A DNA stretch of 64,000 bases from Parcubacteria group bacterium GW2011_GWA2_40_23 (GCA_000996245.1 LBYP01000004.1:10860-74859), one strand, 5' to 3'; positions 10,241 through 29,669 are shown, counted from the stretch's first letter. Made by a program: numbers and translations. Notes: generated by a model not told the origin, from the letters alone.

Positions 10241-10263
10241 CCTTTGCCTATGCAATGGTTATT

Positions 10264-10296
10264 TGGTATAATTATGATAGATTAAATATCTATCAT
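10264..10296 (+). promoter_or_regulatory. extended -10 promoter (TGGTATAAT) followed by a perfect 9-5-9 palindrome ATGATAGAT-TAAAT-ATCTATCAT, a putative operator for the HTH-MTase
   Basis: tggtataat at 10264-10272. The palindrome at 10274-10296 ends 8 nt before the MTase ATG (10304). Confidence 0.5.
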
Positions 10297-10303
10297 TTTT
10301 TAT

Positions 10304-11554: not shown

Positions 11555-11604
11555 AATTTAAACCAGACAAATTCAATGGAACTATATTTTTTGTTTGCCT
11601 GACA

Positions 11605-11640
11605 TTTAAAGGGATATTATCGTCAGGCGTGGATGACTAG
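11605..11640 (+). repeat. direct repeat flanking the R-M cassette (right copy; lies within the 3' end of prmC)
   Basis: See 9436-9470. This copy encodes the PrmC C-terminus (…[10 protein letters not shown]) on the minus strand. Confidence 0.6.
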
Positions 11641-13871: not shown

Positions 13872-13962
13872 GTAGCTTATAGCTAGTTAGCTTATAGCTT
13901 TTAGGTGCTGAGGATTTTAGTGTCAGACACCTAGAAGCTAGCTCCTATAAGCTAAAAGCTTC
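13872..13962. repeat. ~90 bp imperfect palindromic intergenic element rich in AGCTTATAGCT units (copy 1 of 2)
   Basis: agcttatagctagttagcttatagcttttaggtgctgaggattttagtgtcagacacctagaagctagctcctataagctaaaagct. The central hairpin is aggtgctga/tcagacacct. Related to 26634-26724. Confidence 0.55.
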
Positions 13963-14454: not shown

Positions 14455-14578
14455 TTAATTAGCCGGCGGCGTTTAGCCAATGGATTGATTATAAGTTGCA
14501 AAATTAGCAACTCAAAACCTAGAGAGAGAGAGTAAGACCTTCGCCTTTGTGCGGAGGTTTTATTTTTTCACATAGAGC

Positions 14579-14618
14579 GGCTTGCCCCGAACTTGTGTGA
14601 TTAGCACATAGTTCGGGG
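14579..14618. repeat. GC-rich hairpin element GCTTGCCCCGAAC..GTTCGGGG (copy 2 of 2)
   Basis: ggcttgccccgaact…agttcgggg. The same prefix occurs at 6272. It is preceded by another hairpin plus T-run (14538-14570) that likely terminates the ytxH-like gene. Confidence 0.5.
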
Positions 14619-14654
14619 AGGTTATATTTTTACTCTTTTTTATTTGTAAATAAT

Positions 14655-14691
14655 AATTCGTAACATCAAATTAGAAAGTTCTATTCGTAAC
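14655..14691 (+). promoter_or_regulatory. direct-repeat motif AATTCGTAAC-N17-TATTCGTAAC (site A of 3)
   Basis: aattcgtaac at 14655-14664 and tattcgtaac at 14682-14691, 27 bp start-to-start. Ends 5 nt upstream of the -35 box at 14697. The same architecture occurs at 22380-22415 and 29634-29669. Confidence 0.5.
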
Positions 14692-14696
14692 TCTGT

Positions 14697-14724
14697 TTGA
14701 CAAAACATAGCAAATCATTATAAT
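14697..14724 (+). promoter_or_regulatory. consensus sigma70 promoter TTGACA-16-TATAAT
   Basis: TTGACA at 14697-14702 and TATAAT at 14719-14724; it drives the GC-rich ORF downstream. Confidence 0.6.
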
Positions 14725-14781
14725 AAATTTTGCTTCTGAGTGAAGCATGGTTCTGGCTCCAAACCTTTGTGGAGGGTTCCA

Positions 14782-15264
14782 ATGACTCAAAAAATGACCT
14801 GCGATCAAATCGCGAACGCGATTCGTGATGGCTTGCCCGAGGGCTATGCCAAAGCGGCGCGTTTCCAAGTCCGCAAGGTTCATTCGGGGTTCTTGGTGAT
14901 CGTACCGACGCATCAGGTCGGTGGTAAGCGCGTGCTCAAAACGCACTTCGATAACAGCGATTCCCAGACCCTCGTCGCTCATATCATCGCGCACTTCAAG
15001 TCGTCCGTTCCCGAAGATACCGTTGCCTCCCTGCCCAGAGAGTTCCTTTGTGCCAAGGTGAGCACAGCGATTCGTCAGGCCTTGAAGGGCCTCGATGGAA
15101 TCCGTTTCAACGTGCGTCCGGTTCGTGATGGCCTGTGCGTGATCATCCCGTTCCACCGGACCAAGGGTGTCGAGATTCCCAGAGCGCACATCGGTCCGAA
15201 CTTGGACGAGTCCTACCTCGTGACTCGCGCTGTCGAGCACTTCCAGCAGCACCTCGCCGCCTAG
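14782..15264 (+). CDS. GC-rich hypothetical protein with an internal tandem duplication
   Basis: About 160 aa (ORF track starts at 14740; ATG 14782 gives MTQKMTCDQ…). Two similar ~70-aa halves (CDQIANAIRDGLPEGYAKAARFQVRKVHSGFLVIVPTH and CAKVSTAIRQALKGLDGIRFNVRPVRDGLCVIIPFH). GC-rich codons unlike neighbouring genes. The opposite-strand ORF 14671..15348 is judged spurious. Confidence 0.45.
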   Translation: MTQKMTCDQIANAIRDGLPEGYAKAARFQVRKVHSGFLVIVPTHQVGGKRVLKTHFDNSDSQTLVAHIIAHFKSSVPEDTVASLPREFLCAKVSTAIRQALKGLDGIRFNVRPVRDGLCVIIPFHRTKGVEIPRAHIGPNLDESYLVTRAVEHFQQHLAA

Positions 15265-15326
15265 CAGCTTCCGTTCGCCCGGCCAATCAGATTGGTCGGG
15301 CGTAATTTTTTTGCTATAATTAGCAC

Positions 15327-16142
15327 ATGATAAATTTTCTACATACATTTCAACCTCAACCGATTATTTTGAAACTCGGTCCTTTTGCAATCCACTGGTA
15401 TGGGTTCCTTATGATAGTCGGTGGTTTACTTGGTTTTAGTTTGATTCTTTGGTTAATTAAAAAATATAAGTTGGAGAAAAAGTTTTTTGAAGACCTTTTG
15501 TTTTGGTGGGTTGTAGGTGCGATAATTGGCGCCAGAATATATTATGTGATTTATGCTTGGGAAATGTATAAAGATAATTGGCTCGATGTTTTTAAAATTT
15601 GGCAGGGCGGATTGGCGGTCCACGGGATTATGCTTGGCGGATTAATCACAACATTCATCTATTGTCGTTTAAAGAAAAAAGAATTTTTACTCACAGCCGA
15701 TTTAGTTGTTACTGGTTTAGTCACTGCACAGATTGTCGGTCGCATTGGTAATTATTTTAATCAAGAAATTTTTGGTTTGCCAACTAATCTGTCGTGGGGG
15801 ATTCCAATTGACCTTTCTTTCCGTCCGGAACAATTTATGAACTCAAGTTTTTTCCATCCAACTTTTATTTACGAGTCGCTCGGCAACATCTTAATTCTTT
15901 GCCTTCTTCTTTTTCTTCACCTTCGTCGATTTAAGAAAAAAGAATTTCAGCCAGGACAAATATTTTTCTCTTATTTAATCTTGTATTCAATTCTACGATT
16001 CAGTCTAGAGCTTTTAAGAGTCGATTACAGTCCAATCGTTTTTGGTGTGCGTTGGGCGCAGTTGCTGTCAGGTATTATTATCTTAACTTCTATTATATTG
16101 ATTTCCATCCGATTTGCGAGGCACCGCCCTTTGTCATCCTGA
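15327..16142 (+). CDS. lgt: prolipoprotein diacylglyceryl transferase
   Basis: 271 aa polytopic membrane protein. N-terminal Lgt signature (LKLGPFAIHWYGFLMIVGGLLGF) and conserved GRIGNYFNQE. Confidence 0.85.
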   Translation: MINFLHTFQPQPIILKLGPFAIHWYGFLMIVGGLLGFSLILWLIKKYKLEKKFFEDLLFWWVVGAIIGARIYYVIYAWEMYKDNWLDVFKIWQGGLAVHGIMLGGLITTFIYCRLKKKEFLLTADLVVTGLVTAQIVGRIGNYFNQEIFGLPTNLSWGIPIDLSFRPEQFMNSSFFHPTFIYESLGNILILCLLLFLHLRRFKKKEFQPGQIFFSYLILYSILRFSLELLRVDYSPIVFGVRWAQLLSGIIILTSIILISIRFARHRPLSS

Positions 16143-16376
16143 GGCACTCGAAGGAGACAAAGCAATTGTTTGATTGATTGTTAATGTTTTCTCTCAACCC
16201 AATGACTTACTTGACAAAAAGCATTTTTTTTGATATACTATTTTGTTAAACTAAGGGGAAAGATCATTGATTGTTAATTTTGGCTTAATTTAGTAATTAT
16301 TGACTTTTTCCCTTGGTTGGGAAAGGGGCTCCTGCTTGTACCGGGGGCGTGCTGGATCTTTTTTTAGGAGGAAGCG

Positions 16377-17150
16377 ATGAGTAATCGCGACGAGGACACT
16401 GTCGAGGTCGTGGAACAAGAGAAAATGACCGCGTTCGAGAGGGTGGTCTGGCTCTGGGCCAAGATCATCGGGTACATCCTGACCGGCAAGCGCAAGGCCG
16501 AAGAAGTGGCTGAGTGGCTGCAGATCGTGGTGTCGGAACCTCAGTTCTCCCTGCGTCTCAAGGCCCCACGCGACTCCACCATGGACACCGAAGAGCCTCG
16601 CGAAGGCTGGGCCAAGATCTGGGAGCGATTCTACCTCGAGGTCTTTGGGCTGACGGTAGACCTCTCGGGCGTGGCTGTGTCGTCGTACAAACCCGGTCTT
16701 GGCTGGGTGGTGTATGTGCTGAAAGAGCTTTCTCTTAACCAGCTCTTCGCCAAGTCCCGTGACCTGTTCCCGAGTCGCTCGGATTACGGCGACGACCTGG
16801 ATCGCAAGATTCCGACCGAAGATCGCGACCCGCGTCAACTGGGCAACTACGTGCGTCGGTTCCGGAATCGCGTAGAGGCGGATGAAGAACTCAAAGAAAA
16901 GTCCGCCAACGTTCTGCGCGATGAAGGTATCGCAGGCAACACTCTCCGTGAAGCCTTGATCCTAGAGCTCTTCTACTTCTGGCGCACAGGTGGCGGGCAT
17001 CTGAACTTGCGTTACTGGAATCTCTGTGCGGGCTCGCGCGGTTACCTTGGCTACGTTCCGCGCGTCTTATGGAGCATTGGTTGCTTCCGCGTCAGCGACT
17101 ACGATCCGAGCGGTTCCGGCGAGGATGTGCGCGCGCGCTCCGCAGTTTAA
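16377..17150 (+). CDS. DGR target (variable) protein; GC-rich, C-terminal CLec-like variable region
   Basis: 257 aa. AGGAGG sits 7 nt upstream of the ATG. C-terminal …RYWNLCAGSRGYLGYVPRVLWSIGCFRVSDYDPSGSGEDVRARSAV corresponds codon-for-codon to the Asn-codon-rich TR. No obvious signal peptide. Confidence 0.7.
   Translation: MSNRDEDTVEVVEQEKMTAFERVVWLWAKIIGYILTGKRKAEEVAEWLQIVVSEPQFSLRLKAPRDSTMDTEEPREGWAKIWERFYLEVFGLTVDLSGVAVSSYKPGLGWVVYVLKELSLNQLFAKSRDLFPSRSDYGDDLDRKIPTEDRDPRQLGNYVRRFRNRVEADEELKEKSANVLRDEGIAGNTLREALILELFYFWRTGGGHLNLRYWNLCAGSRGYLGYVPRVLWSIGCFRVSDYDPSGSGEDVRARSAV
17025..17147 (+). repeat. DGR variable region (VR)
   Basis: 3' end of the target gene. Differs from the TR almost only where the TR has A (e.g. 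AGC/GAC/GGT/GGC versus AAC/AAT). The 3'-terminal block gtgcgcgcgcgctccgcagtt is a putative IMH. Confidence 0.75.
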
Positions 17151-17157
17151 CCCTTTT

Positions 17158-17192
17158 CCCTTGTCCCTTTAACCCTTGCGTTAGGGACAGGG
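17158..17192 (+). promoter_or_regulatory. GC-rich hairpin immediately downstream of the VR (candidate DGR homing-enhancing stem-loop)
   Basis: cccttgtccct … agggacaggg is an inverted repeat 8-40 nt after the target-gene stop. A second hairpin, ccagcgttcgctgg, lies at about 17234-17249. Confidence 0.45.
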
Positions 17193-17304
17193 TAAACAAC
17201 CAACATCTGGCACTTCGTACATACGGGGTGCCAGTGCCAGCGTTCGCTGGACAACACAGGGCGTCTTGAAAAAGATCCGCGGTGATTATGGATGGAAATG
17301 ACCA

Positions 17305-17427
17305 ATATGCGGGCTCGCGCGATAACAATGGCAACGTTCCGAACGTCAAATGGAACAATGGTAACTTCCACGTCAACAACTACAATCCGAACAATTCCAA
17401 CGAAAATGTGCGCGCTCGCTCCGAAGT
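17305..17427 (+). repeat. DGR template region (TR)
   Basis: tatgcgggctcgcgcgataacaatggcaacgttccgaacgtcaaatggaacaatggtaacttccacgtcaacaactacaatccgaacaattccaacgaaaatgtgcgcgctcgctccgaagtt. Adenine-rich with many AAC/AAT codons. Lies in a non-coding GC-rich spacer. Confidence 0.75.
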
Positions 17428-17444
17428 TTCAAGTCAAAAGGGGT

Positions 17445-17828
17445 TTATTGATTAAGCTCCTTTTGTTGTAAATATTCAATCCAACCAGAAGTCATTTTTG
17501 AGATTTCTTGTAATTTCTCTTGAAAAACGCCATAGTTTTTTTCTTTGAGTGTTGATAGTTCTAATTCAAGTCTAATGAATTGTTTAAGAGTTTCAATTTC
17601 AATCTTTAACTCTTTAACTACAGGGAGCTTTTCGAGTTTTTGCATTAACGCTGCTTTAATTGCCAGGCGTAGACAAGCTAGAATTACGGATTCTGTTTTT
17701 GATCTTATTCCGTATTTATCGACTTTTGGCAGACCCTTGGTGTTTTGATAGAGCATTTTAAATAAGTCGGAAATTTTATGAACAATCGAAGCGTGAATGA
17801 CATCGGAGGCAATGAATTTGTTGGTCAT
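17445..17828 (-). CDS. avd: Avd-like accessory variability determinant (four-helix-bundle protein)
   Basis: 127 aa. LYQNTKGLPKVDKYGIRSKTESVILACLRLAIKAAL fits the Avd / 23S-rRNA-IVS four-helix-bundle pattern (fPK..KYGL.SQ…). Located between TR and RT but on the opposite strand; its 5' end overlaps the RT ORF by 51 nt. Confidence 0.55.
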   Translation of the reverse strand: MTNKFIASDVIHASIVHKISDLFKMLYQNTKGLPKVDKYGIRSKTESVILACLRLAIKAALMQKLEKLPVVKELKIEIETLKQFIRLELELSTLKEKNYGVFQEKLQEISKMTSGWIEYLQQKELNQ

Positions 17829-18860
17829 AGTGTTTTTGATAAAATTATTTCTATTGAAAATTTATATGGCGCTTGGCGAGAATTTAAACGAGGCAAGACC
17901 AGCAAAAAAGATGTTCTTTGTTTTGAATTTAACTTGGAGGATAATTTGTTCAATTTAGCTGAAGAATTGAAATTAGGCAATTATTTAGTTGAAAAGTATG
18001 ATTTTTTCTATGTGCGTGATCCTAAATTACGGCCGATTCACAAAGCTTCAGTGCGAGATAGAGTCGTTTTTCAAGCTGTCTTTCGGGTACTTTACCCTGT
18101 TTTTGATAAGCAGTTTATTCACGACTCCTGTTCATGTCGTTATAAGAAGGGAATACATTTTGCCGTCGCTCGATTGCGTCGATTTTGTGCCAAAGTAAGT
18201 AATAATTACCATCAGCAAGCATTTGCTTTAAAATGCGATGTCAAAAAGTTTTTCTATTCCATTGATCATGTTATTTTGAAAAAACTCATTAAAAGAAACA
18301 TCGAGGACACGCGTCTGTTGCACCTGATAGATATTATCGTTGATAGTTTTTCTGTAGCTCCAGAAAAGGGTTTGCCGCTGGGAAATGTTACTAGCCAGTT
18401 ATTCGCCAACATCTATTTGAACGAGTTGGATATATTTATCAAACATGAATTACATGAAAAATTTTATCTTCGTTATTGCGATGATTTTATTATTTTGAGC
18501 GAAAGTCAAAGTCATTTATTTGATTTGATACCAATTATAAGTGAGTTTCTCTCATCAGAGTTAAAATTAAAGCTGCATCCGGGTAAAGTTCAACTTAAAA
18601 AAATGACTCAAGGGATTGATTTTTTAGGATATGTAACATTGCCATATTATGGTGTTCTTCGAACGAAAACAAAACAAAGGATGTTTAGGAAGGTTATTGC
18701 AGCCTCGGAAAAGCTGGATGCTGATTTGATTGATAAGATTGGTTTTAACCAAGTGCTGCAATCATATTTGGGAATACTGCAACATTGCCAGAGCTTTTGG
18801 TTACAGCAGGAGCTATTGTTTCTTTGCGGAGAATGCCTTGCTGAAACACAAAAATCGTGA
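17778..18860 (+). CDS. DGR-type reverse transcriptase
   Basis: 360 aa. RT domains are present. LPLGNVTSQLFANIYLNELD carries the DGR-specific (I/L)GxxxSQ motif. The YxDD box reads RYCDDFIILS. No in-frame alternative start lies before the conserved RT region. Confidence 0.85.
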   Translation: MNNRSVNDIGGNEFVGHSVFDKIISIENLYGAWREFKRGKTSKKDVLCFEFNLEDNLFNLAEELKLGNYLVEKYDFFYVRDPKLRPIHKASVRDRVVFQAVFRVLYPVFDKQFIHDSCSCRYKKGIHFAVARLRRFCAKVSNNYHQQAFALKCDVKKFFYSIDHVILKKLIKRNIEDTRLLHLIDIIVDSFSVAPEKGLPLGNVTSQLFANIYLNELDIFIKHELHEKFYLRYCDDFIILSESQSHLFDLIPIISEFLSSELKLKLHPGKVQLKKMTQGIDFLGYVTLPYYGVLRTKTKQRMFRKVIAASEKLDADLIDKIGFNQVLQSYLGILQHCQSFWLQQELLFLCGECLAETQKS

Positions 18861-19010
18861 TATCATAGCACTTGTAACAATTATTTAACAAAACACATAC
18901 TTTTCTTAGCTTATTTTAGCTAAAAGCATTAGACCTGCTGATAAACTCAGCCCTGATGTCTTGAAAAGTAGAGGATCCTGCCTCGGCGGGATAAAGAAAG
19001 GAAATTTACT

Positions 19011-19700
19011 ATGGCAAACGTACCAAGTTTACAAGACTTGATGAAGGCTGGCGTGCATTTTGGTCATCAAAAATCAAAATGGTACCCAAAAATGAAACCT
19101 TATATCTTCATCGAGAAGAACGGGATCCACATTATTAATTTAGAAGAAACTCAAAAGGCTTTAGAAAAAGCTTTGAATTTCATTACTGAGACTGTTGCCG
19201 GTGGCGGAACAGTTCTTTTTGTCGGCACTAAAAAGCAAGCACGTGACATTGTTAAAGACGCTGCACTTTCTTGCAACATGCCGTATGTGACTAATCGTTG
19301 GCTCGGTGGTACTTTAACTAATGCTCCAACCGTTTTAGGCTTAGTTAAAAAGTTCCGAAAATTAAAGGAAGAAAAAGCTTCTGGTAAATTAGAAAAATAT
19401 ACTAAGAAAGAACAATTAGAAATAGCTCGTGAAATTGAACGCTTAGAAACCATTGTTGGTGGTATTGAAAAATTAGAACGCATTCCAGATATACTTTTCA
19501 TGGTTGATATTAAAACCGACAAAACAGCTGTGAAAGAAGCAACACGTCGTCATGTGCCAGTTGTGGCTTTGTGCGATACAAACTCAAATCCAGAATTGGT
19601 TAAATATCCAATTCCATCTAATGACGATGCTGTTAAAGCATTGCAATTAATGGCTACTTTAGTTGCAGAAACAATTAAAGAAGTTAAGGAGAAGGTTTAA
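19011..19700 (+). CDS. rpsB: 30S ribosomal protein S2
   Basis: 229 aa. MANVPSLQDLMKAGVHFGHQKSKWYPKMKPYIF is the canonical S2 start. Confidence 0.92.
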   Translation: MANVPSLQDLMKAGVHFGHQKSKWYPKMKPYIFIEKNGIHIINLEETQKALEKALNFITETVAGGGTVLFVGTKKQARDIVKDAALSCNMPYVTNRWLGGTLTNAPTVLGLVKKFRKLKEEKASGKLEKYTKKEQLEIAREIERLETIVGGIEKLERIPDILFMVDIKTDKTAVKEATRRHVPVVALCDTNSNPELVKYPIPSNDDAVKALQLMATLVAETIKEVKEKV

Positions 19701-19752
19701 AGATCTAAATAATTACTCGTTATTCGTTTCGCGTCATTAAAAATTAAGAATT

Positions 19753-19783
19753 ACTGGTTACTGGTCACTGGTGACTGGTTACT
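19753..19783. repeat. tandem heptamer repeat (TGGTNAC)x4 in the rpsB-tsf spacer
   Basis: actggttactggtcactggtgactggttact. Confidence 0.4.
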
Positions 19784-19803
19784 AATTATAAAGAAACAAA
19801 AAT

Positions 19804-20391
19804 ATGGCAGACACACAAGCTGTTGTTAAATTACGCAATCAAACTGGTGCTGGTATGCAGGATTGCAAAAAGGCTTTAGATGAAGCCAACGGTGATTATG
19901 AAAAAGCGATTGATGTTTTACGCCAAAAGGGTGAACTCAAAGCGGCTAAGAAAATCGAAGAACGTGTAGCCAAAGAAGGCATTGTTTATTCTTATATCCA
20001 TTCCAATAATAAAACTGGAGCCATGATTGCTTTGGCATGTGAAACAGATTTTGTGGCGCGCACGGAAGATTTCAAAAATTTAGCGCACGAAATTTCTTTG
20101 CAAGTAGTGGCTATGATGCCAGATTATTTGAATCCAGAAGATGTTCCAGCTGATATCATTGAAAGAGAAAAGAATGTTTACATGGAGCAATTGAAGGGTG
20201 AGGGGAAGCCGGCCAATATTATTGAAAAAATAATGACTGGTAAATTAGAGAAATTTTACGCGGATGTTTGCTTGGTTAAGCAACAATATATCAAAGACGA
20301 CTCAATCACCATCGAAGGATTGATCAATCAATTTATTGCCAAAACTGGTGAAAAAGTCCAAATTACTCGTTTCGTTCGTTTCCAAATTTAA
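19804..20391 (+). CDS. tsf: elongation factor Ts (short form)
   Basis: 195 aa. MADTQAVVKLRNQTGAGMQDCKKALDEANGDYEKAIDVLRQKG is the EF-Ts UBA-like N-terminus. Follows rpsB as in the rpsB-tsf operon. Confidence 0.9.
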   Translation: MADTQAVVKLRNQTGAGMQDCKKALDEANGDYEKAIDVLRQKGELKAAKKIEERVAKEGIVYSYIHSNNKTGAMIALACETDFVARTEDFKNLAHEISLQVVAMMPDYLNPEDVPADIIEREKNVYMEQLKGEGKPANIIEKIMTGKLEKFYADVCLVKQQYIKDDSITIEGLINQFIAKTGEKVQITRFVRFQI

Positions 20392-20401
20392 TTTAACATC
20401 A

Positions 20402-21193
20402 ATGAAAATTGTTAAAGTACAATTTGCGCCTTGGGACAAGTCTTATAACTTTAGCTATGAGAATGAAGATATTAAAGTTGGAGATTATGTTGTGGTAGAA
20501 ACAAAGTTGGGCATCGAATTGGCTAAGGTGATTGCCTTTGATGAAATGAATGATACCTTGGCACCCGGAGCTGACCCTATTAAACCGATTTCACATAAAG
20601 CGAGTAAAGAAGATTTAGATTGCGTTTTAGAACAAAACCGTCAAAAGGATCGTGTTTTTAAAAAATGCGTGGGTTTAATCAAAAAGAATGAATTGCCGAT
20701 TAAACTAGTTGATGTTCATTGTTCTCTTGATGATACTCGTTTGACCTTTGCTTTCATTGCTGATGGTCGTGTCGACTTCCGCGAATTATTGAAAGATTTG
20801 AATAAAGAATTTAAAAAGAGTATTCGTTTACAACAAATTGGTATTCGTGATGAAATAAAAATCAATGGTGATATTGGTTGTTGCGGCATGAATTTATGTT
20901 GCCAGGGATTTTATAAAGAATTGGGCAATGTAACTTCTGAACTTGCTGCATTGCAACAAGTGGCTCATCGTGGTTCAGAACGTCTCTCAGGTGTCTGCGG
21001 ACGCTTGAAGTGCTGTTTAACCTTCGAAGAAAAACTTTACAATGAATTGGCAGATAATTTACCGATGATTGGAGAAAAAGTAAAGACTGCACATGGGGCT
21101 GGTGAAGTTATCGGTTGGCATGTTTTGAAACAGACAGTTGATGTACTTCTTGAGGATAATACCACGATCGTAGAAATGCCTATAGTTAAATAG
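20402..21193 (+). CDS. PSP1 C-terminal domain protein (RicT/YaaT-like)
   Basis: Start moved to ATG 20402 to avoid overlap with tsf. Cys-rich conserved region GDIGCCGMNLCCQGF … SGVCGRLKCCLTFEE matches the PSP1/RicT pattern (CGRLmCCL). Confidence 0.6.
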   Translation: MKIVKVQFAPWDKSYNFSYENEDIKVGDYVVVETKLGIELAKVIAFDEMNDTLAPGADPIKPISHKASKEDLDCVLEQNRQKDRVFKKCVGLIKKNELPIKLVDVHCSLDDTRLTFAFIADGRVDFRELLKDLNKEFKKSIRLQQIGIRDEIKINGDIGCCGMNLCCQGFYKELGNVTSELAALQQVAHRGSERLSGVCGRLKCCLTFEEKLYNELADNLPMIGEKVKTAHGAGEVIGWHVLKQTVDVLLEDNTTIVEMPIVK

Positions 21194-21322
21194 GCATTTT
21201 TTTGATATAATTGGGGAAAGGTAAAAGAATAAAGAATAAGGAATAAAGAAGTTGAAAAGACTCATACATTCGACTTTTGATTTATTCGTTATTCGCTATT
21301 CTTTATTCATAATTCTTGCTAT

Positions 21323-22360
21323 ATGAAAAACAATTTGCTTCAACTTCGAGAAACAGCCCGCCAAGAGATTTCAGCGACAAAAAATTTAACTGAATTAGAA
21401 AATATTCAAATCAAATACTTTGGTCGCAAGGATGGCGTGCTAAATGTTTTATTAAAAAGCTTAAAAGATCTTTCTCCTGAAGCCAAAAAAGAGGTTGGAC
21501 AACTCGCTAATCAAGTAAAAGTAGAATTAGAAGAATCTTTGGCAAAACAGAAAACTATTTTAGAGAAAGAAGACATTGCTTCAACCTTGGAACAAGATAG
21601 AATTGATGTTACTTTACCAGCAATTGCTCCTAAGAAGGGAAGTTTAAATCCCACTACACTAGTCCAAAATGAATTAGAAGATATTTTTAAGTCTTTGGGT
21701 TTTATGGTTCTAGATGGCCCTGAATTAGAATCAGATTATTATAATTTTGAAGCTTTAAATATTCCAGAACATCATCCGGCGCGCGACATGCAAGACACTT
21801 TTTATATTAAAGGTTTAGCCAAAAATGAAAAACGTGTTTTGCGCACACACACTTCTCCGGTTCAAGTTCGTGCTATGCAAAAATATGGTGCGCCGCTGCG
21901 AGCCGTGGCTCCAGGGCGTGTTTTTCGTTATGAAGCTTCGGATGTTTCGCATGATCATACTTTTTATCAATTAGAAGGTATTATGATCGATGAAAATATT
22001 TCCATTACCAATCTAATCGCGGTCATGAAAACCTTACTCCGTGGAATTTTAAAACGCGACGTTAAGGTTCGTTTGCGTCCAGGATTTTTTCCATTCGTCG
22101 AACCTGGGTTTGAACTTGATATTAATTGTTTAATTTGCGGCGGAACTGGTTGCTCTGTTTGTAAACAATCTGGTTGGGTAGAGCTTTTACCTTGCGGTAT
22201 GATGCATCCAAGCGTTCTACGTGCTGGCAACATTGATCCAGAAAAATATTCTGGTTTTGCTTTTGGTTTGGGTTTAACTCGATTAGTTATGATGAAATAT
22301 GGTATTGATGATATACGTTTGTTGAATTCCGGTGATTTACGATTCCTGAAGCAGTTTTAA
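21323..22360 (+). CDS. pheS: phenylalanine--tRNA ligase alpha subunit
   Basis: 345 aa. Class II aaRS motifs (FRYEASDVSHDHTFYQLEGIMID; GFFPFVEPGFELDI; GFAFGLGLTRLVM). Confidence 0.92.
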   Translation: MKNNLLQLRETARQEISATKNLTELENIQIKYFGRKDGVLNVLLKSLKDLSPEAKKEVGQLANQVKVELEESLAKQKTILEKEDIASTLEQDRIDVTLPAIAPKKGSLNPTTLVQNELEDIFKSLGFMVLDGPELESDYYNFEALNIPEHHPARDMQDTFYIKGLAKNEKRVLRTHTSPVQVRAMQKYGAPLRAVAPGRVFRYEASDVSHDHTFYQLEGIMIDENISITNLIAVMKTLLRGILKRDVKVRLRPGFFPFVEPGFELDINCLICGGTGCSVCKQSGWVELLPCGMMHPSVLRAGNIDPEKYSGFAFGLGLTRLVMMKYGIDDIRLLNSGDLRFLKQF

Positions 22361-22379
22361 ATCTTCCAGTGTATCAAGT

Positions 22380-22415
22380 AATTCGTAACATCAATATAAA
22401 TGTATTATTCGTAAC
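22380..22415 (+). promoter_or_regulatory. direct-repeat motif AATTCGTAAC-N16-TATTCGTAAC (site B of 3)
   Basis: aattcgtaac at 22380-22389 and tattcgtaac at 22406-22415; ends 9 nt before the ATG at 22425. Confidence 0.5.
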
Positions 22416-22424
22416 TCAAATAGT

Positions 22425-23312
22425 ATGTCTACAAAAACAAAAACTAAAACGTCAAAATCTCCCGTGAAGTCCACTCCATCAAACCCAGTTGGGGAAAAGC
22501 ATAAAACCAAATGGGGTTTTGTCATCTTGTTTGCAGTTTGCTCTGTTTTAGTGCTTATAACCGTTCTCACAATTTTGTGTGATGGTATGATGAATGTTTT
22601 TGTTCGAGTACCGAGTCAGACAAGTAATGTTATCAGGATTTTTGACCCAAAAGCAGTTGAAGCTCAGGCTGTTACTCAATCATTCAGTAGGGATCAGGGT
22701 ATCGATGGCTACACACTTTATGAAGTTAAACATAATAAAATAGTTTTAACAAAAGCAGGGACAAACGAAATTATTTGGGAAAAGAATTGGCCGGGCGGTG
22801 AGCCAGCCTTGGCACTAATTACAGGGGACAGAGTTTATTTGGCTCGTTACGAACAAATGTATTCTGATGCTGATGGTTTGATCGGATCTATTTATAACTT
22901 TGACTTGCAAACAGGTGAACTTATCTGGCCAATTACAAGTATCAATGGTCAATTCGTCAAACTTTTTTTACAAGATAATGTTTTGGTTCTTGCTACTAAA
23001 AGATCAATAGAACCTGGTTGGGGATGTGGAGAAGGTATGAGCGAGGCTGAAGCGGAAGCCGATTGCTCACGTCCACGTCGTACTTATATTACTGGATCAG
23101 ATAAAATTTTTGCATTTGATGCGAAAACTGGCGATCAGCTTTGGGAGAGAGAAATTTTTGGATATCAACAAGTCACTTTGCCAGATAATAGCCAGTTTTT
23201 AGAAGTTACTTATGATCAGAATAAAAAAGAATATTATTTTATTGAAGATGGTACTGTCCCTCCTGAAACAACCATGATCGAAAGCGATAATACTATTAAA
23301 AAAGATGAATAA
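22425..23312 (+). CDS. membrane-anchored protein with PQQ-like beta-propeller repeats
   Basis: 295 aa. Lys/Thr-rich N-terminus, a TM helix (FVILFAVCSVLVLITVLTIL), and repeated …G(E/D)(L/Q)(I/L)W… blades (GELIWPITS; TGDQLWEREI). Confidence 0.45.
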   Translation: MSTKTKTKTSKSPVKSTPSNPVGEKHKTKWGFVILFAVCSVLVLITVLTILCDGMMNVFVRVPSQTSNVIRIFDPKAVEAQAVTQSFSRDQGIDGYTLYEVKHNKIVLTKAGTNEIIWEKNWPGGEPALALITGDRVYLARYEQMYSDADGLIGSIYNFDLQTGELIWPITSINGQFVKLFLQDNVLVLATKRSIEPGWGCGEGMSEAEAEADCSRPRRTYITGSDKIFAFDAKTGDQLWEREIFGYQQVTLPDNSQFLEVTYDQNKKEYYFIEDGTVPPETTMIESDNTIKKDE

Positions 23313-23314
23313 AT

Positions 23315-24079
23315 ATGACTGTTTCTCGCGACAAAATAGTTTCATTCTGCTCCGATTACTTGAAAGCTGAGAATTTTCAGGATTATTGTCATAATGGTCT
23401 GCAGATTTGTGGTACTGATAAAGTAGGGAAGATAGTCATAGGCGTTACGCTCTCGAAAAGATTGATCGAATCAGCCATTCAAAAAAAAGCCGATATGATT
23501 ATTGTTCATCATGGACTGTTTATGAAACATTTCGGAGAGTTTCCCGTGATTGAAGGTGTTTGGTGCGAAAGATTGAAGCTTTTATTGAATAATGATATTA
23601 ATCTTTGCGGTTTTCATCTACCTTTAGACGCACATCCTTTAATCGGAAATAATATTAGTATTATAAACGCATTAGGTCTTCAGAAAGTTTGTGGGCTCGT
23701 CGAAGACGGGCAGAGTATCGGTTATGTCGGAGCGTATAAAAAGGCAGTCGATAGAGATAAATTTGTTGAATTAGTGAATAAAAAGCTAGAAACCAAGTCA
23801 GTTGTTCTGTCGTTCGGTGCTAGTCAAGTTAAAAGGGTAGGGATTGTGTCTGGTGGGGCTTCTCCAACCTGGGTTACCGCTCAGAAGTTAGGTTGTGATA
23901 CATTTATTACTGGTGATTTGAGAGAAAGTGTGGTTCGTCCAGCCGAGGAAGCCAAAATGAATGTAATCAATGCCGGTCATTATAATTCAGAACGATTTGG
24001 CATAATGAATCTTGGCAAATTAATTCAGAAAAAGTTTAAAGTTCCAGTTGAATTTGTGGAGATTCCATGTAACATTTAA
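23315..24079 (+). CDS. Nif3-family dinuclear metal centre protein (YqfO/NGG1p-interacting factor 3-like)
   Basis: 254 aa. NGLQICG…ADMIIVHHGLF and C-terminal …INAGHYNSERFG match the Nif3 family pattern. Confidence 0.75.
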   Translation: MTVSRDKIVSFCSDYLKAENFQDYCHNGLQICGTDKVGKIVIGVTLSKRLIESAIQKKADMIIVHHGLFMKHFGEFPVIEGVWCERLKLLLNNDINLCGFHLPLDAHPLIGNNISIINALGLQKVCGLVEDGQSIGYVGAYKKAVDRDKFVELVNKKLETKSVVLSFGASQVKRVGIVSGGASPTWVTAQKLGCDTFITGDLRESVVRPAEEAKMNVINAGHYNSERFGIMNLGKLIQKKFKVPVEFVEIPCNI

Positions 24080-24189
24080 AATAATAATAATTGTCATGCT
24101 GAACTTGTTTCAGCATCTGCAAAGATTGTTTGCGATAAATTTTCCGGATCCTGAATCAAGTTCAGGATGACATAAGGAATCATATAAGT

Positions 24190-26628
24190 ATGAATATTTC
24201 ATTGAATTGGTTAAAACAATACATCGACTTACCAAAAACAGTTAAGCCCGAAGAATTAGGTTTAAAATTAACCATGGCGACAGTGGAAGTGGAAGAGGTA
24301 ACTGATTTAGCGGCCAGTTTGGAAAATGTTGTTGTTGGTAAAATAACGAAAATTTCTACACATCCAAATGCAGATCGTTTGCGTTTAACAGAAGTTGATG
24401 TTGGTTCCAGAAAAGTCAAAGTTGTTTGCGGTGGAATTAATTTAACCGAAGGTATGCTAGTGGCTCAAGCTATGCCTGGCGCTAGGGTTCGTTGGCATGG
24501 AGAAGGGGAGCCAATTGTTCTTGAAATTGCGAAAGTTAGAGGCGAAGAAAGTGAAGGCATGATTTGTACCAGCGCCGAAATTGGTTTGGCTTCTATGTTT
24601 CCAACCAAAGAAGATGCTGAAATAGTTGATTTATCCAACCTTAAATGTAAGGTTGGAACAAATTTAGCTGAAGCGCTTGGACTTGATGATGTAATTTACG
24701 AAATTGATAATAAATCTGTCACTAACCGTCCAGATCTTTGGGGGCAATATGGCATGGCTAGGGAAGTAGCAGCAATTTATGATTTGAAATTAAAAAAGTA
24801 CCCAGTTGAAAAAATAGAAGAAGGCAAAGGCATAGAATTAAGAATTAAGGTGGAGAATAAATCGGCTTGCCCACGATACATGGCCGTCGCACTAAGTGGA
24901 ATTAAGATTGGTCCGTCCCCTGAATGGTTGCAACAAAGATTGTTAGCCATTGGCCAAAAGCCAATCAATAATGTTGTCGACGTTACTAACTATGTTATGT
25001 ACGATTTAGGACAACCCATGCACGCTTTTTCGGCTGATAAAATTGTAAATCACGAAATTATAGTTCGTTCGGCGCATGATGGTGAGAAAATAACCACACT
25101 GGATGGAATCGAAAGGGAATTACGTTCAGAAGATCTAGTTATTGCCACTAAAGATAAAGCAGTGGCCTTGGCAGGTATTATGGGGAATGAAAATTCTCAA
25201 ATTAATGATAATTCGGAGACGATCATTTTAGAATCAGCGACATTTGATCCTGTGACAATCCGTCGGACTTCAAGTCGACTTGGTTTACGTACAGAAGCAT
25301 CAATCCGTTTTGAAAAAAGTTTAGATCCTAATATCGCTGAGTTGGCTATTTTAAAGGCAGTCAATTTAATTCAAGACATGATGCCTGAGGTTAAAGTTGT
25401 CAGTTCGTTGATTGACATAAACAACTATAAAAATGAATTAAAACCGATTGAAATTGACTTTGATTTTATCAATCGTCGTATTGGTGCTGATTTGGGACAA
25501 GAAAAAATAATTAAAATTTTAACTAATTTGGGTTTTGGCGTCAAAGTAACTAAGAAAAGTTTAAAAGTTGTTATACCATCTTGGCGCGCCACGAAAGATG
25601 TTAATATTAAAGAAGATCTAATTGAAGAAATTACCCGCATTTATGGTTATGACAATTTAACACCAGAAATGCCTCCAGTAAAAATTGAATATAAAGAGCC
25701 AAACGAATTACGTAACCTAGAACGTCAAATTAAAAATATTTTAGCTTTGCAGTTTGGCGCGAATGAGGTTTATAATTATTCTTTTGTAGATCGTACCTGG
25801 CTAGCTAAAATTGGTTTTACCTCTGAACACATAGAATTGCAAAATCCTTGGTCCGAAAATGTAAATTTGATGCGTCGCAGTTTAGTTCCAAATTTATTAG
25901 AAAATGCCATCAACAATTTTCGTTTCTTTGATGAAATAAATATTTTTGAAATCGGCAAGACTTTTATAGAAAATCAGAAGGGGCCAATTGCTCGACCAGG
26001 AGTAGAAGCTAGTTTGCCAACTCAAGATTTGTTTGCTGGTGGTCTTGTTTCTGGGGCTACCCCAGAAGAAGCTTTTTTGAAGGCGAAGGGGATGGTGGAG
26101 GCATTGTTAAATAAAGCACAAATTAAAGCTTCATATAATACTCAGAATGCCGTGAACCCATGGTGTCATCCAAATCAATTTATGGAAGTATTGGTTGGTA
26201 AGGATAGCCTTGGTTATTTTTCTGTAGTACATCCAGAGGTCGCTCAAAACATAGAATTGAATAAGCCCGTGGCTGTTTGGGAAATTAATTTAAATTTAGT
26301 TCTTAAATACTTTGAAGATAAACTCAAGTATAAAACCTTGGCTAAATATCCGGGCATCGAATTGGATCTTTCAATTCTTGTGGCTGAAAAAACAGCTTGG
26401 CAAGACATCCAAAAGTTGGTTTTGGCTGTTGAACCAAAAATTATTAAGGAGGTACATTTGTTAGATGTCTTTAAAAATGATAAAATTGAAACAGGGAAGA
26501 AGAGTGTAACCTTCCGTATTGTTTATCAATCAGAAGAAAGAACGCTTGAAATGGAAACAGTTTTAATATTACAGAAAAAAATAGTAGAGCAGTTGAGTAA
26601 GGCGGTCGGTGCAGAGGTACGTCAATAA
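24190..26628 (+). CDS. pheT: phenylalanine--tRNA ligase beta subunit
   Basis: 812 aa. MNISLNWLKQYIDL is the canonical PheT start. tRNA-binding, B3/4, B5 and FDX-ACB domain order is recognisable. Confidence 0.92.
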   Translation: MNISLNWLKQYIDLPKTVKPEELGLKLTMATVEVEEVTDLAASLENVVVGKITKISTHPNADRLRLTEVDVGSRKVKVVCGGINLTEGMLVAQAMPGARVRWHGEGEPIVLEIAKVRGEESEGMICTSAEIGLASMFPTKEDAEIVDLSNLKCKVGTNLAEALGLDDVIYEIDNKSVTNRPDLWGQYGMAREVAAIYDLKLKKYPVEKIEEGKGIELRIKVENKSACPRYMAVALSGIKIGPSPEWLQQRLLAIGQKPINNVVDVTNYVMYDLGQPMHAFSADKIVNHEIIVRSAHDGEKITTLDGIERELRSEDLVIATKDKAVALAGIMGNENSQINDNSETIILESATFDPVTIRRTSSRLGLRTEASIRFEKSLDPNIAELAILKAVNLIQDMMPEVKVVSSLIDINNYKNELKPIEIDFDFINRRIGADLGQEKIIKILTNLGFGVKVTKKSLKVVIPSWRATKDVNIKEDLIEEITRIYGYDNLTPEMPPVKIEYKEPNELRNLERQIKNILALQFGANEVYNYSFVDRTWLAKIGFTSEHIELQNPWSENVNLMRRSLVPNLLENAINNFRFFDEINIFEIGKTFIENQKGPIARPGVEASLPTQDLFAGGLVSGATPEEAFLKAKGMVEALLNKAQIKASYNTQNAVNPWCHPNQFMEVLVGKDSLGYFSVVHPEVAQNIELNKPVAVWEINLNLVLKYFEDKLKYKTLAKYPGIELDLSILVAEKTAWQDIQKLVLAVEPKIIKEVHLLDVFKNDKIETGKKSVTFRIVYQSEERTLEMETVLILQKKIVEQLSKAVGAEVRQ

Positions 26629-26633
26629 AATAA

Positions 26634-26724
26634 AAAGCTTATAGCTTATAGGAATTAGCTTCTAGGTGCTGTGATTTTAAGTCATAAGCGCCTAAAAGCT
26701 AGAAGCTAAATTGCTAGAAGCTAA
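26634..26724. repeat. ~90 bp imperfect palindromic intergenic element rich in AGCTTATAGCT units (copy 2 of 2)
   Basis: agcttatagcttataggaattagcttctaggtgctgtgattttaagtcataagcgcctaaaagctagaagctaaattgctagaagct. Shares TAGGTGCTG.GATTTTA.GT……CCTA.AAGCTAG with copy 1 (13872-13962). Confidence 0.55.
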
Positions 26725-26730
26725 ATATGT

Positions 26731-26997
26731 ATGATCGAAAACTCAAAAGACATCTTTTACATTGTTTTGTCGTTTTGTATCTTTTGGTTAACAGTTTTTT
26801 TGTGCTGGGGTTTGTATTATTTAGCTCAAACCCTTAGACAAACGAATGAAGTAATTTCATCCATGCGGGAGCGTGTCGCGCATTTAACTGATATTGTTGA
26901 TTTAATAAAAAGTAAAGCGCTTGGTTTTGTAACAAAAAAAGCTTTCGGTTTTATGACTGGGGCGGGCAAAGACGCTAAAAACAAAAAGAAAAAATAA
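26731..26997 (+). CDS. small membrane protein (hypothetical)
   Basis: 88 aa with one TM helix (IFYIVLSFCIFWLTVFLCWGLYYL). Start codon abuts the next gene. Confidence 0.4.
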   Translation: MIENSKDIFYIVLSFCIFWLTVFLCWGLYYLAQTLRQTNEVISSMRERVAHLTDIVDLIKSKALGFVTKKAFGFMTGAGKDAKNKKKK

Positions 26998-26999
26998 GT

Positions 27000-29567
27000 A
27001 TGCCAGAATTGGAGTTGGATTTATCGATTGGGAGTTCAATTACAGACAACCCTATGTTTTTACCAGGATTAGGAATTTTGTTTCTAATCTTTTTGTTTAT
27101 TATTATACTCTATATTATTAGATATTTTTCTCTTCATCGCGGACGAGTAGCAGTATCTTTCCAAAAGAAAATTATGCTAATCACTATGCCGAAAGCTGCT
27201 CCCAAGGAGGGCGGAGGTACAGAACCACCCGCCTGGCAGCAGGTACAAGAGAAAATCGCGGTGATGGAAACATTTTTTTCAACTATTGCGGGACTTAAGG
27301 CTGAAAAGGGTATTAAGACTTGGTTTTTTGGCCATCGTGATGTTTTTTCTTTAGAAATTGTGGCCGATAAGGAGGGGAAGATTAATTTTTTTATGGCTAT
27401 TCCTGCACATTGGCAGCAATATGTAGAAGAACAGCTGCAAGCGCAGTTTCCTCAAGCTTTTTTGGAAGAAGTCCCAGATTATAATATTTTTTCACCGACC
27501 GCAGTTATTGGTGGTCGCATGTTTACTTTTAAACGGGAGTACATTTTTCCCATAAAAACATTTAAGAAGTTTGATTCTGATCCATTAAATGGAATTACGA
27601 ATGCCTTGAGTAAAATGGACATAGGGGACGGTGCGGCCATCCAGATTGTCATTAAATCAGCCAGAGGCAGTTGGCACGATTTCGGCGTTAAATTAGCTTC
27701 TAAAATGCAGCAGGGTAAAAGTCTAAAGGATGCCATGCGTGAAGTAAAAGGTGGCATCTGGGGCTTTATTAGTGGGATAGCTAAAGCAGCCAAACCAAAA
27801 TCGGCCGAACCACAACAGCAGGAACAATATAAGTTATCACCCATGGAAGAAGAGGTTGTTAAGGGTCTGGAAGAAAAAGCTAGCAAGGCTGGAGTTGACG
27901 CTAATATTAGAATAGTTGTTTCTTGTGAACGGCCGGAAAAAACAGAAATGCAATTAACAAGTTTAGTTAATGCGTTTGCACAATACAGCATTTATCAATT
28001 CGGGAATGGTTTACAACCAGAAGAACCTTCTTTGAAAAAAATGATCCCTGATTTTATTTATAGAAATTTTGATTCTAAACGCAAGATGCTTTTCAACACT
28101 GAAGAGCTAGCTAGTTTGTATCATTTTCCAATTCCACTTATCAATGAAACTCCAAGTATCCGTTGGTTAGATGCCAAGAAAGCACAAGCACCGCTTAATG
28201 TACCGAAGGAAGGTATTATTTTGGGTAAAAATTTATATCGTGGTCGCGAAACTTTAATCCGCATCAAACGTGAAGATAGACGACGCCATCAATATATTAT
28301 TGGTATGACGGGTACTGGTAAATCGTGGTATCAAGAAGGTTTGATCATGCAAGATATTGTTAATGGTGAGGGTTGTTGTTTTATCGATCCGCATGGTGAT
28401 GCCATTCAACATATTTTGGAACATATTCCACAAGAACGCGCTGAGGATGTGGTCATTTTAGATCCAAGCGATGTTAGACGTCCCATGGGTTTGAATTTAT
28501 TGGAATATAAAACACAAGAAGAAAAAACTTTTGCGATTAATGAAATCATGGCCATTTTTGATAAGTTGTATGATTTGAAGGCAACAGGCGGTCCTATGTT
28601 TGAACAATACTTCAAAAATGCAGCGGCTTTGATTATGGCTGATCCTGAGTCTGGTTCAACACTTTTAGAAATTTCACGCGTGTTAGCTGATGATGATTTT
28701 AGAAAATACAAACTTTCAATGTGTAAGGATCAATTGGTTAAAGATTTTTGGGAAAAGGAAGCTCAAAAAGCCGGTGGGGAAGCCTCTTTGGCCAACATGG
28801 TGCCTTACATTACCAGTAAAATGTCGCCCTTTATTTCGAATGATTTTGTGCGTCCGATTATTTCGCAGCAAAATAGCACTATCGACTTTAAGGAAATCAT
28901 GAATACCAAAAAGATTCTGTTAGTCCAATTATCTAAGGGTAAAATTGGTGGGATTAATGCCAACCTCCTCGGTATGTTGATTATTGGTAAATTGCTCATG
29001 GCTGCCTTAGGACGATCTGACATGGCAGAAGAAGATCGTAAAGATTTTTATCTATATGTGGATGAGTTTCAAAACTTTTTGACTGACAGTATGGAAATTA
29101 TCTTGTCTGAAGCCCGAAAATATCGTTTATGTTTAACAATTGGACACCAATACGTTGGGCAGCTGGTCAAGGGCGGGGACACAAAATTCAAAGATGCTAT
29201 TTTTGGTAACGTCGGTACAAAAGTTGTTTTCCGTATTGGCGTAGATGATGCTGAGGCGCTAACAAAGGAATTTGCACCTATTTTTAATGAATATGATTTC
29301 TTGAATGTTCCAAAATACAATTGCTATGTCAAGCTACTTATAGATAATGCAAATCCACCCGGATTTAATATGGCTTCTATCCCTTTTGACAAAATACCTG
29401 GTGTCCCACCCGCTAATAAAGACTTGGCTGAGGCTATCCGAGAACTCTCACGCTTGAAATATGGTAAAGATCCAGATATAATTGAGATGGAAGTCAAAGA
29501 ACGGCAACAAAAGATCTTGTGCAAAACAGCGCCACCGCTTGCCCCGAATTTACCGCCAGCAATTTAA
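27000..29567 (+). CDS. VirD4/TraG-like coupling-protein-family ATPase (DUF87/TraD-type DNA-transfer ATPase), membrane-anchored
   Basis: 855 aa. N-terminal TM helix. Walker A (IIGMTGTGKSWYQ). Walker B-like (FYLYVDEFQNFLTD). The segment CCFIDPHGD…VVILDPSD…RPMGLNLLE is typical of T4SS coupling / conjugal-transfer ATPases. Confidence 0.55.
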   Translation: MPELELDLSIGSSITDNPMFLPGLGILFLIFLFIIILYIIRYFSLHRGRVAVSFQKKIMLITMPKAAPKEGGGTEPPAWQQVQEKIAVMETFFSTIAGLKAEKGIKTWFFGHRDVFSLEIVADKEGKINFFMAIPAHWQQYVEEQLQAQFPQAFLEEVPDYNIFSPTAVIGGRMFTFKREYIFPIKTFKKFDSDPLNGITNALSKMDIGDGAAIQIVIKSARGSWHDFGVKLASKMQQGKSLKDAMREVKGGIWGFISGIAKAAKPKSAEPQQQEQYKLSPMEEEVVKGLEEKASKAGVDANIRIVVSCERPEKTEMQLTSLVNAFAQYSIYQFGNGLQPEEPSLKKMIPDFIYRNFDSKRKMLFNTEELASLYHFPIPLINETPSIRWLDAKKAQAPLNVPKEGIILGKNLYRGRETLIRIKREDRRRHQYIIGMTGTGKSWYQEGLIMQDIVNGEGCCFIDPHGDAIQHILEHIPQERAEDVVILDPSDVRRPMGLNLLEYKTQEEKTFAINEIMAIFDKLYDLKATGGPMFEQYFKNAAALIMADPESGSTLLEISRVLADDDFRKYKLSMCKDQLVKDFWEKEAQKAGGEASLANMVPYITSKMSPFISNDFVRPIISQQNSTIDFKEIMNTKKILLVQLSKGKIGGINANLLGMLIIGKLLMAALGRSDMAEEDRKDFYLYVDEFQNFLTDSMEIILSEARKYRLCLTIGHQYVGQLVKGGDTKFKDAIFGNVGTKVVFRIGVDDAEALTKEFAPIFNEYDFLNVPKYNCYVKLLIDNANPPGFNMASIPFDKIPGVPPANKDLAEAIRELSRLKYGKDPDIIEMEVKERQQKILCKTAPPLAPNLPPAI

Positions 29568-29584
29568 AAAACAAAAACAAAAAG

Positions 29585-29669
29585 TTACGAATAGCTACTT
29601 AAAAATGATGTTACGAATTATTGCCTAAACAGTAATTCGCAACTTCAGAAAGGATGTGTTATTCGTAAA
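29585..29669 (+). promoter_or_regulatory. direct-repeat motif site C (AATTCGCAAC-N16-TATTCGTAAA) plus two upstream inverted copies (GTTACGAAT)
   Basis: gttacgaata at 29585-29594; gttacgaatta at 29610-29620; aattcgcaac at 29634-29643; tattcgtaaa at 29660-29669. The site ends 7 nt before the ATG at 29677. Confidence 0.5.

Follow-up and report, generated by a model that had tools for sequence, protein, structure and literature searches.

A bipartite intergenic motif in Parcubacteria as the probable core of a short, mobile, interspersed repeat

Three genes in a 64,000-nucleotide stretch of the genome of Parcubacteria group bacterium GW2011_GWA2_40_23 (GCA_000996245.1 LBYP01000004.1:10860-74859; the whole stretch is referred to below as the window) are preceded by a bipartite ATTCGTAAC motif, composed of two short direct half-sites that we term box 1 and box 2. 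A preliminary description took these sites for the possible regulon of a single regulator, and the question that the locus raises is whether the motif is a regulatory signal of the genes that it precedes or a sequence with a history of its own. By comparing the window with syntenic loci of relatives and with metagenome contigs, we arrived at the second answer: with a probability of about 0.6, the motif is the cis-acting core of a short interspersed intergenic repeat family, mobile and recognised by a protein, in a clade of Parcubacteria. The genomes of the Candidate Phyla Radiation are tiny and tightly packed, with almost no characterised cis-regulatory or mobile DNA. If the reading holds, even genomes as compact as these carry fast-turnover intergenic repeat families, and such dispersed repeats can mislead motif-based regulon prediction in them.

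The repeat unit in the window and in metagenome contigs

An exact search for AATTCGYAACWTCA-N10-16-TATTCGTAA returned four matches in the window and none in 100 dinucleotide-preserving shuffles, confirming that the motif is non-random and that the three sites lie where they had been placed. The four copies conform to AATTCGYAAC-N16/17-TATTCGTAA and span 14655-14690, 22380-22414 and 29634-29668 on the plus strand and 29619→29585 on the minus strand, the last being a full unit formed by the inverted copies already noticed at the third site. Their boxes are 27, 26, 26 and 26 bp apart, start to start, in agreement with the 26-27 bp reported before. All four are intergenic, in a window of which 11.6% is intergenic DNA, and they fall inside one 15-kb span. 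When up to five mismatches were allowed, 12 weak matches appeared beyond the four copies, as against 8-17 in shuffles; degenerate copies thus do not exceed chance, and the copies of the window are either near-perfect or absent.

The three sites differ in their make-up. Site A is a single unit on the plus strand (14648-14691), in which the flank AAATAAT is followed by box 1 (AATTCGTAAC, 14655-14664), a 17-nt spacer and box 2 (TATTCGTAAC, 14682-14691); six nucleotides after it begins a promoter that matches the sigma-70 consensus at 12 of 12 positions (TTGACA-16-TATAAT, 14697-14724, plus strand) and belongs to a GC-rich gene. Site B, also a plus-strand unit (box 1 at 22380-22389, box 2 at 22406-22414), lies downstream of pheS, and the next ATG, at 22425, is 10 nt past the TAA of box 2. 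Site C is an inverted doublet (<< >>, 29584-29669) with box 2 at each outer end, one half of which (unit C', 29585-29619, minus strand) faces the 3' end of a VirD4-like gene, while the other (unit C, 29634-29668, plus strand; box 1 AATTCGCAAC, box 2 TATTCGTAA) ends 8 nt before the ATG of a 207-aa gene at 29677, counted from the TAA of box 2. The closeness of box 2 to a start codon at sites B and C therefore stands, with the distances of 7-9 nt given previously corrected to 10 and 8 nt.

To see the unit beyond the window, metagenome contigs were scanned with AATTCGYAAC-N15-18-TATTCGTAA; the counts that follow, here and in the discussion of gene context, refer to the matches listed and are lower bounds. 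More than 113 contigs carried the pattern, many of them in several copies. Of 127 instances left after duplicates were removed, 83 are family copies that also agree in AAaCAGT ahead of box 1, in WTCA behind it and in a T at position 17 of the spacer, and 81 of these 83 are intergenic by simple gene calls; the other 44 resemble chance matches, half of them lying within long open reading frames (ORFs). The basic unit is about 45 bp long and reads AAaCAGT, AATTCGTAAC, a loosely conserved spacer of 16-17 nt and TATTCGTAA(C). Of 176 units collected under relaxed settings, 73 had a box spacing of 26 bp and 75 one of 27 bp.

Units occur singly, in head-to-tail tandem or as inverted doublets of about 100 bp with a 29-bp centre. 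Single units are the commonest form and have no inverted ends. In the 41 inverted doublets box 1 points inward and box 2 outward, so that the doublet ends in inverted copies of box 2, and the gap between the halves peaks at 29 nt; the 15 tandem pairs have a gap of 6 nt in 11 cases, and convergent pairs were absent from the 176 relaxed units. Two classes of spacer can be told apart, approximately ATCAATATAGAATGTGT and ATCATTTTTATGAAGC, and they combine unevenly: 26 doublets pair class 1 with class 2 (as at site C, where C' is the class-2 half), 18 pair class 1 with itself, none pairs class 2 with itself, and class-2 units are rare outside doublets. Single units show no hairpin (z-scores of +1.0 and +1.1 for units A and B), and across 82 units the mean minimum free energy was -1.26 kcal/mol versus -0.72 kcal/mol for shuffles, a weak and non-significant in-unit signal. 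The site C doublet, as RNA, forms a long imperfect hairpin (-28.3 kcal/mol, z -6.0), and does so only because its boxes pair.

Conservation is concentrated in the boxes. When the partner halves of doublets were located through box 1 alone (at most two mismatches allowed), their box 2 carried 0-1 mismatch in 46 of 52 cases, where 4-5 mismatches would be expected, and their spacers were 0.45 identical; the boxes are conserved to about 95%, and the spacers of unrelated copies are 0.41 identical. As the boxes stay near-perfect while the spacers drift, the boxes appear to be the selected part of the unit. They are almost certainly read by a sequence-specific protein, and we propose that the element would require this protein for its propagation or retention; such a dependence would explain the near-perfect boxes, the drifting spacers and the lack of decayed relics in the window.

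Units are gained and lost as whole blocks in short spacers

The syntenic loci used for comparison (designated by L numbers) were chosen through homologues of pheS, and hence independently of the motif. L124/L125, the closest relative, matches the window in gene order, including the PQQ and NIF3 genes, with flanks that are about 90-95% identical and could be aligned base by base; it contains no unit in 21 kb, versus four in the window. At site A, alignment with L125 shows a clean 129-bp indel (14567-14695, plus strand) located between the T-run of the YtxH terminator and the TTGACA box. The block comprises unit A and a hairpin (CCCCGAACT...AGTTCGGGG, then a T-run) of which no repeat was found elsewhere. 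In L125, which lacks the motif, a near-identical promoter (TTGACAaaacatagcaaatcattATAATA) directly follows the YtxH terminator, and the promoter is thus older than unit A. Site A does adjoin a consensus -35 box, as was reported, but the activator-like placing read into this finds no support in the comparison: the apparent activator position arises because the insertion fell in a spacer only a few nucleotides long.

The other two sites behave in the same manner. At site B the spacer between pheS and the PQQ gene is 8 nt in the relative and 64 nt in the window, where unit B and its 5' flank make up an indel of about 53 bp (22362-22414, plus strand). In the more distant L118 (pheS 87% identical), the pheS-pheT junction reads TTTTAAA-CTCAAATAT-ATG, and removal of 53 bp from the window restores exactly that sequence; taken over L118 and L121, the spacer is TTTTAAA-(C/T)(T/A)(C/T)AAATAT-ATG. 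The TCAAAT that follows box 2, previously regarded as a conserved part of the element, is at site B ancestral spacer. At site C a 45-nt spacer with a small hairpin takes the place of the 84-bp doublet in L124/L125, and the doublet is missing from the same junction of L118. Sites A, B and C are in fact all absent from L124/L125, L118, L121 and L122, and with L118 as outgroup parsimony makes the four units of the window recent gains.

Similar replacements were found elsewhere. The pheT-s88 junction holds a doublet in L118, a different palindromic repeat in the window and a small hairpin in L121/L122; among the motif-bearing contigs, L113 and L005 have the same terminator and TTGACA promoter, but only one of the two has a doublet there, and the leader of rplS is occupied by a single unit in L096 and by an ACTGGT-repeat module in L020 and is empty in L090. 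These comparisons show that each gain or loss concerns an entire unit or doublet, as one block, in the very short A/T-rich spacers between genes, terminators and promoters. That units lie beside start codons, -35 boxes or terminators accordingly reflects where non-coding DNA exists, and not a common regulatory design. A three-gene regulon is not supported by these findings, since the sites are not conserved, the targets are incoherent and the promoters are intact in relatives without a unit; nor is a leaderless promoter for the three genes supported, their start contexts existing unchanged where the unit is missing. The motif is essentially part of a larger repeated sequence that moves, an outcome that the preliminary description had itself named as contrary to its proposal. 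Turnover of this kind makes the units convenient for tracing very recent changes of the genome between populations that are nearly identical.

The gene content of the pheS region varies as well. In the window, a PQQ-like beta-propeller gene and a NIF3 gene (22425-24079) are located between pheS and pheT, likewise in L124/L125; L118, L119, L120 and L121 are without them, pheT directly following pheS, and L123 has a 23S-rRNA-IVP/Avd-like gene at that place.

Gene context and rival explanations

Across the contigs, the box-2 end of the unit meets several kinds of neighbour. It adjoins a start codon at 2-10 nt in 20 units, a TTGACA box at 4-11 nt in 11-12 units (like site A) and another unit in some cases, and in about 25 units, about a third, it faces an A-run and hairpin that form the intrinsic terminator of a gene converging on it (like C'). 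In ten genes whose start codon is 2-9 nt past box 2, the Pfam alignment begins within residues 1-19, indicating true N-termini. Their functions (HtrA-like protease, ATP synthase gamma, glycosyltransferase, beta-CASP RNase, IF-2B-like, SerRS, Hsp20, CTP synthase, L19 and rubrerythrin) are unrelated and of a housekeeping nature. Units also often bracket GC-rich (52-67%) single-gene islands with their own TTGACA promoter, GGAGG and terminator, and one unit neighbours an RNase P RNA. The idea that such islands are the cargo of a composite element was dismissed: their genes are heterogeneous, and the island of the window is conserved in place in relatives without units. In general, the native genes have no Shine-Dalgarno sequence and an A/T-rich upstream region, many with a TATAAT 6-14 nt before the ATG, and only the GC-rich genes have GGAGG; judged from sequence, this placement of TATAAT implies that leaderless or very short-leader mRNAs may be widespread.

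Several observations weigh against a mobile repeat. Of 27 single units, 22 point the same way as the genes beside them (p=0.0015, on crude gene calls), and where gene direction and GC skew conflict, the units side with the genes in 8 of 8. A replication-strand bias, as in transposition through single-stranded DNA, was therefore rejected, units agreeing with GC skew in only 17 of 34 cases. An orientation bias is expected of a directional function such as a promoter or leader, and mobility requires orientation-dependent tolerance as an added assumption; a directional role is thus kept alive as a minority possibility. Furthermore, no target-site duplication was seen at 10 doublets or at the filled and empty junctions of sites A, B and C; an apparent duplication of TAA or TCAA(A/G)T at site B was not reproduced at site C or at other doublets. 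We saw no filled and empty pair at strain level (>98% identical) and no bursts of identical copies, a spacer being shared in only 11 of 5342 pairs of unrelated copies, so that no donor of the apparently recent insertions in the window stands out. No pair of units with box 2 outward enclosed a transposase-like ORF in about 880 kb of loci, which in so small a sample is weak evidence. Finally, the conservation of the boxes is partly a matter of ascertainment, most loci having been fetched by exact box matches, a bias that the partner-unit test only reduces.

A first rival reading makes the unit a portable operator for some globally acting DNA-binding protein, be it a transcription factor or a nucleoid-associated protein: a clade-specific protein would sit on the two direct ATTCGTAAC boxes, and units spread by duplication would be kept for modulating or insulating adjacent transcription units. 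The concentration of conservation in the boxes, the fixed geometry of tandem and inverted arrays, the bias of single units towards gene starts, their frequent position 4-11 nt upstream of TTGACA boxes and directly after terminators, and the bracketing of GC-rich, independently transcribed genes would all suit such an operator. We nonetheless consider it unlikely, as near-identical promoters, presumably working, occur without a unit in close relatives, no site is kept at orthologous positions, and the targets are functionally unrelated. The 26-27 bp between boxes and the roughly 37 bp of the doublet centre amount to half-integral helical turns, which would be unusual for cooperative dimers, and no candidate regulator gene recurs beside units; a tblastn search of the loci with the regulators of the window found no protein recurrently encoded there, and the MarR gene and both extracytoplasmic function (ECF) sigma genes of the window have no motif copy upstream. 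The window also encodes an HTH_17 protein (48054-48341).

The remaining two explanations are more doubtful still. The unit might be a self-contained promoter for leaderless or very short-leader mRNA, in which either box 1 (GTAAC) and box 2 (CGTAA) serve as the -35 and -10 elements of an ECF-type sigma factor, or a weak sigma-70 promoter (TAAACA, 17-19 nt, TAnAAn in the spacer) is embedded between operator boxes. Verified start codons 2-10 nt past box 2 in 20 units, an organism whose genes lack Shine-Dalgarno sequences and often place TATAAT just before the ATG, the directionality of single units, and the TAnAAn hexamer in most spacers with its conserved T at position 17 speak for a promoter. 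However, about a third of the units would fire into the terminator of a converging gene, units B, C and that of L096 lie between genes that are transcribed together or after a conserved promoter, and the distance from box 2 to the ATG is broad (2-10 nt). In characterised ECF promoters the distance from AAC to CGT is about 16-17 nt, whereas it is 20-21 nt in all four window copies, and no motif stands upstream of the sigma genes at 34923 and 48547, so that autoregulation is lacking. We rate this promoter very improbable. A mini-ORF for re-initiation, ATG-NNN-TAT-TCG-TAA ending at box 2, was rejected on inspection, as it is present in 9 of 20 ATG-proximal units, about as in other contexts. Equally improbable, in our estimate, is a role at the RNA level, in which transcribed units would be protein-binding sites and doublets long hairpins that set processing or stability (through RNase III or 5'/3' protection) in an organism translating without Shine-Dalgarno sequences. 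The folding of the site C doublet and of sibling families (z -4.4 to -5.2), the different hairpins that occupy the same leader or spacer slot in different relatives, and an orientation that tracks transcription and not GC skew are what such a role predicts. Single units do not fold, though, the spacers of doublet halves are unrelated (class 1 versus class 2) so that the boxes alone pair, and many units lie beyond terminators, where low transcription is expected.

Under the mobile-repeat reading, which we prefer, inserted units would mostly be transcribed in sense, within leaders or intercistronic spacers, and doublets could fold, as RNA or DNA, into long hairpins; if neighbouring genes were affected at all, this would be secondary.

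Known repeat systems, sibling repeats and other features of the window

The family behaves like REP/BIME/REPIN elements or Correia-type elements, but fails the defining tests of both. With the REP, BIME and REPIN sequences of proteobacteria (associated with RAYT/TnpA-REP) it shares short extragenic repeats after terminators and between co-transcribed genes, the forms of singletons, tandem arrays and fixed-linker inverted doublets built from two unit types, and positions that vary between related genomes; REP elements are, moreover, bound by host proteins. Unlike a REP, the single unit here is non-palindromic and unfolded, and its boxes are without GTAG/CTAC. The window does encode a RayT-like ORF (55915-56619, 234 aa, KKR07340.1) with a weak match to E. 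coli TnpA-REP/RAYT (PDB 4er8, E 7e-4). Its whole family, 63 proteins from Falkowbacteria-like Patescibacteria of which JGI labels some as RayT, has N-F-F-Y-W in place of the HUH histidines, suggesting that these may be domesticated, non-catalytic DNA-binding proteins. The flanks of the gene contain no ATTCGTAA box, and the gene occurs as well in relatives that showed no units.

The likeness to Correia elements of Neisseria and to other miniature inverted-repeat transposable elements (ERIC, RUP, BOX) consists, for the doublets, in a palindrome about 100 bp long whose ends are inverted copies of box 2, and further in insertion near gene starts and ends, presence/absence polymorphism between relatives, possible transcript hairpins and promoter-like hexamers carried along. 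Against this likeness stand the lack of a target-site duplication, the failure to find a related autonomous insertion sequence in the loci searched, the predominance of directional half-elements, and the two direct 9-10-mers, 26-27 bp apart, at each end. Tn7/Mu-type and Tc1-like (IR/DR) transposons have ends in which two direct transposase-binding sites are conserved, the sequence between them is free and the ends are inverted. The units differ from such ends: they carry no cargo, do not terminate in TG/CA, show no target duplication and have no transposase gene nearby. Two direct 9-10-mers 26-27 bp apart, with neither hairpin nor target duplication, thus form an unusual design, and should the binding or mobilising protein be found, it would constitute a new repeat-protein system in an uncultured phylum.

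Other identities were considered and set aside. The cin-box of the streptococcal competence sigma factor ComX (sigma-X) is, as the literature confirms, TACGAATA. This 8-mer lies in the reverse complement of box 2, TTACGAATA, on a strand that points away from the adjacent start codon and towards the 3' end of the gene upstream, and we treat the likeness as a coincidence. A DNA uptake sequence (DUS/USS) would need about one copy per kb, inside genes as well, and the four copies in 64 kb are all intergenic. On inspection the boxes do not match integron attC cores (RYYYAAC/GTTRRRY), and a likeness of box 1 to the 3' region of 16S rRNA, AAGUCGUAACAAGG, was left as coincidental. Rfam reported only tRNA-Gln in the window at the gathering threshold, and only tRNAs and one RNase P RNA in 20 loci. 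The motif was not found in viral contigs, and GTDB representatives, among which the source genome is not included, gave one chance match only, in Chryseobacterium. Literature searches with the sequence itself returned primers and unrelated matches only, and those on Patescibacteria promoters, leaderless mRNA and intergenic repeats returned nothing relevant.

The units are accompanied by sibling intergenic modules, in the window and on other contigs, that consist of repeated words, often in inverted halves, and mostly end a few nucleotides before an ATG; several fold as long hairpins, and different families fill the same slot in different relatives. The window holds the families GCTAGAAGCTA (26635-26723, and 13873-13961 upstream of rpmE), GGGTAAG/CTTATCCC (4160-4236 and 45195-45262), GAATAAAG/CTTTATTC (21218-21320), GTAAGCAA/TCGCTTA (1690-1775) and ACTGGTNAC (19745-19785). 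A bolder proposal, which we hold to be quite unlikely as it stands, would unite the units with the families GCTAGAAGCTA, ACTGGTNAC, GGGTAAG, GAATAAAG and GTAAGCAAG as interchangeable mobile leader or spacer cassettes of Parcubacteria without Shine-Dalgarno sequences. These cassettes would be read by a clade-specific protein (one candidate being the conserved HUH-less RayT-like protein) and copied between intergenic slots without target duplication. In genomes with very few conventional regulators, they would provide new promoters, hairpins and contexts for translation starts or rewire existing ones.

Two further hairpin-forming repeats were noted. A perfect 28-bp palindrome starting with GTAG, GTAGGGAACAAAAATTTTTGTTCCCTAC, is present in three copies (45751-45778, 48006-48033 and 58871-58898) and may be a bidirectional terminator or a REP-like hairpin. 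Intergenic hairpin repeats of the form GTCAT(G/C)CTGAACTTGTTTCAG(C/G)AT are found in the window (24094-24170), in L119 (11038-11273) and in L120 (about 7300).

The GC-rich gene downstream of site A (14730-15340; 55-67% GC in a 38% GC genome) is a small gene with a consensus sigma-70 promoter, GGAGG and a strong terminator, and its 160-aa product has two homologous halves and no Pfam match. Its counterparts in L118 (6104-6652) and L125 (6174-6782) are in place but fast-evolving, and many islands of this kind are present in L023, L090, L097, L099 and L101. Further along, the window carries a diversity-generating retroelement (16377-18860), which comprises a GC-rich target gene (16377-17150) with its variable repeat (17027-17148), a template repeat (17308-17429) 79% identical to the variable repeat, a minus-strand bAvd gene (about 17445-17756) and, at 17778-18860, a reverse transcriptase; the whole cassette is missing between lgt and rpsB in L118, L119 and L124/L125. 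At 9425-11634, two 41-nt direct repeats that are 83% identical (9425-9465 and 11594-11634) enclose a restriction cassette, made up of a gene for an Eco47II-like restriction endonuclease (9533-10240) and one resembling a C5 methyltransferase (10304-11554); between the AP-endonuclease-like gene and prmC of L124/L125 this cassette appears to be missing.

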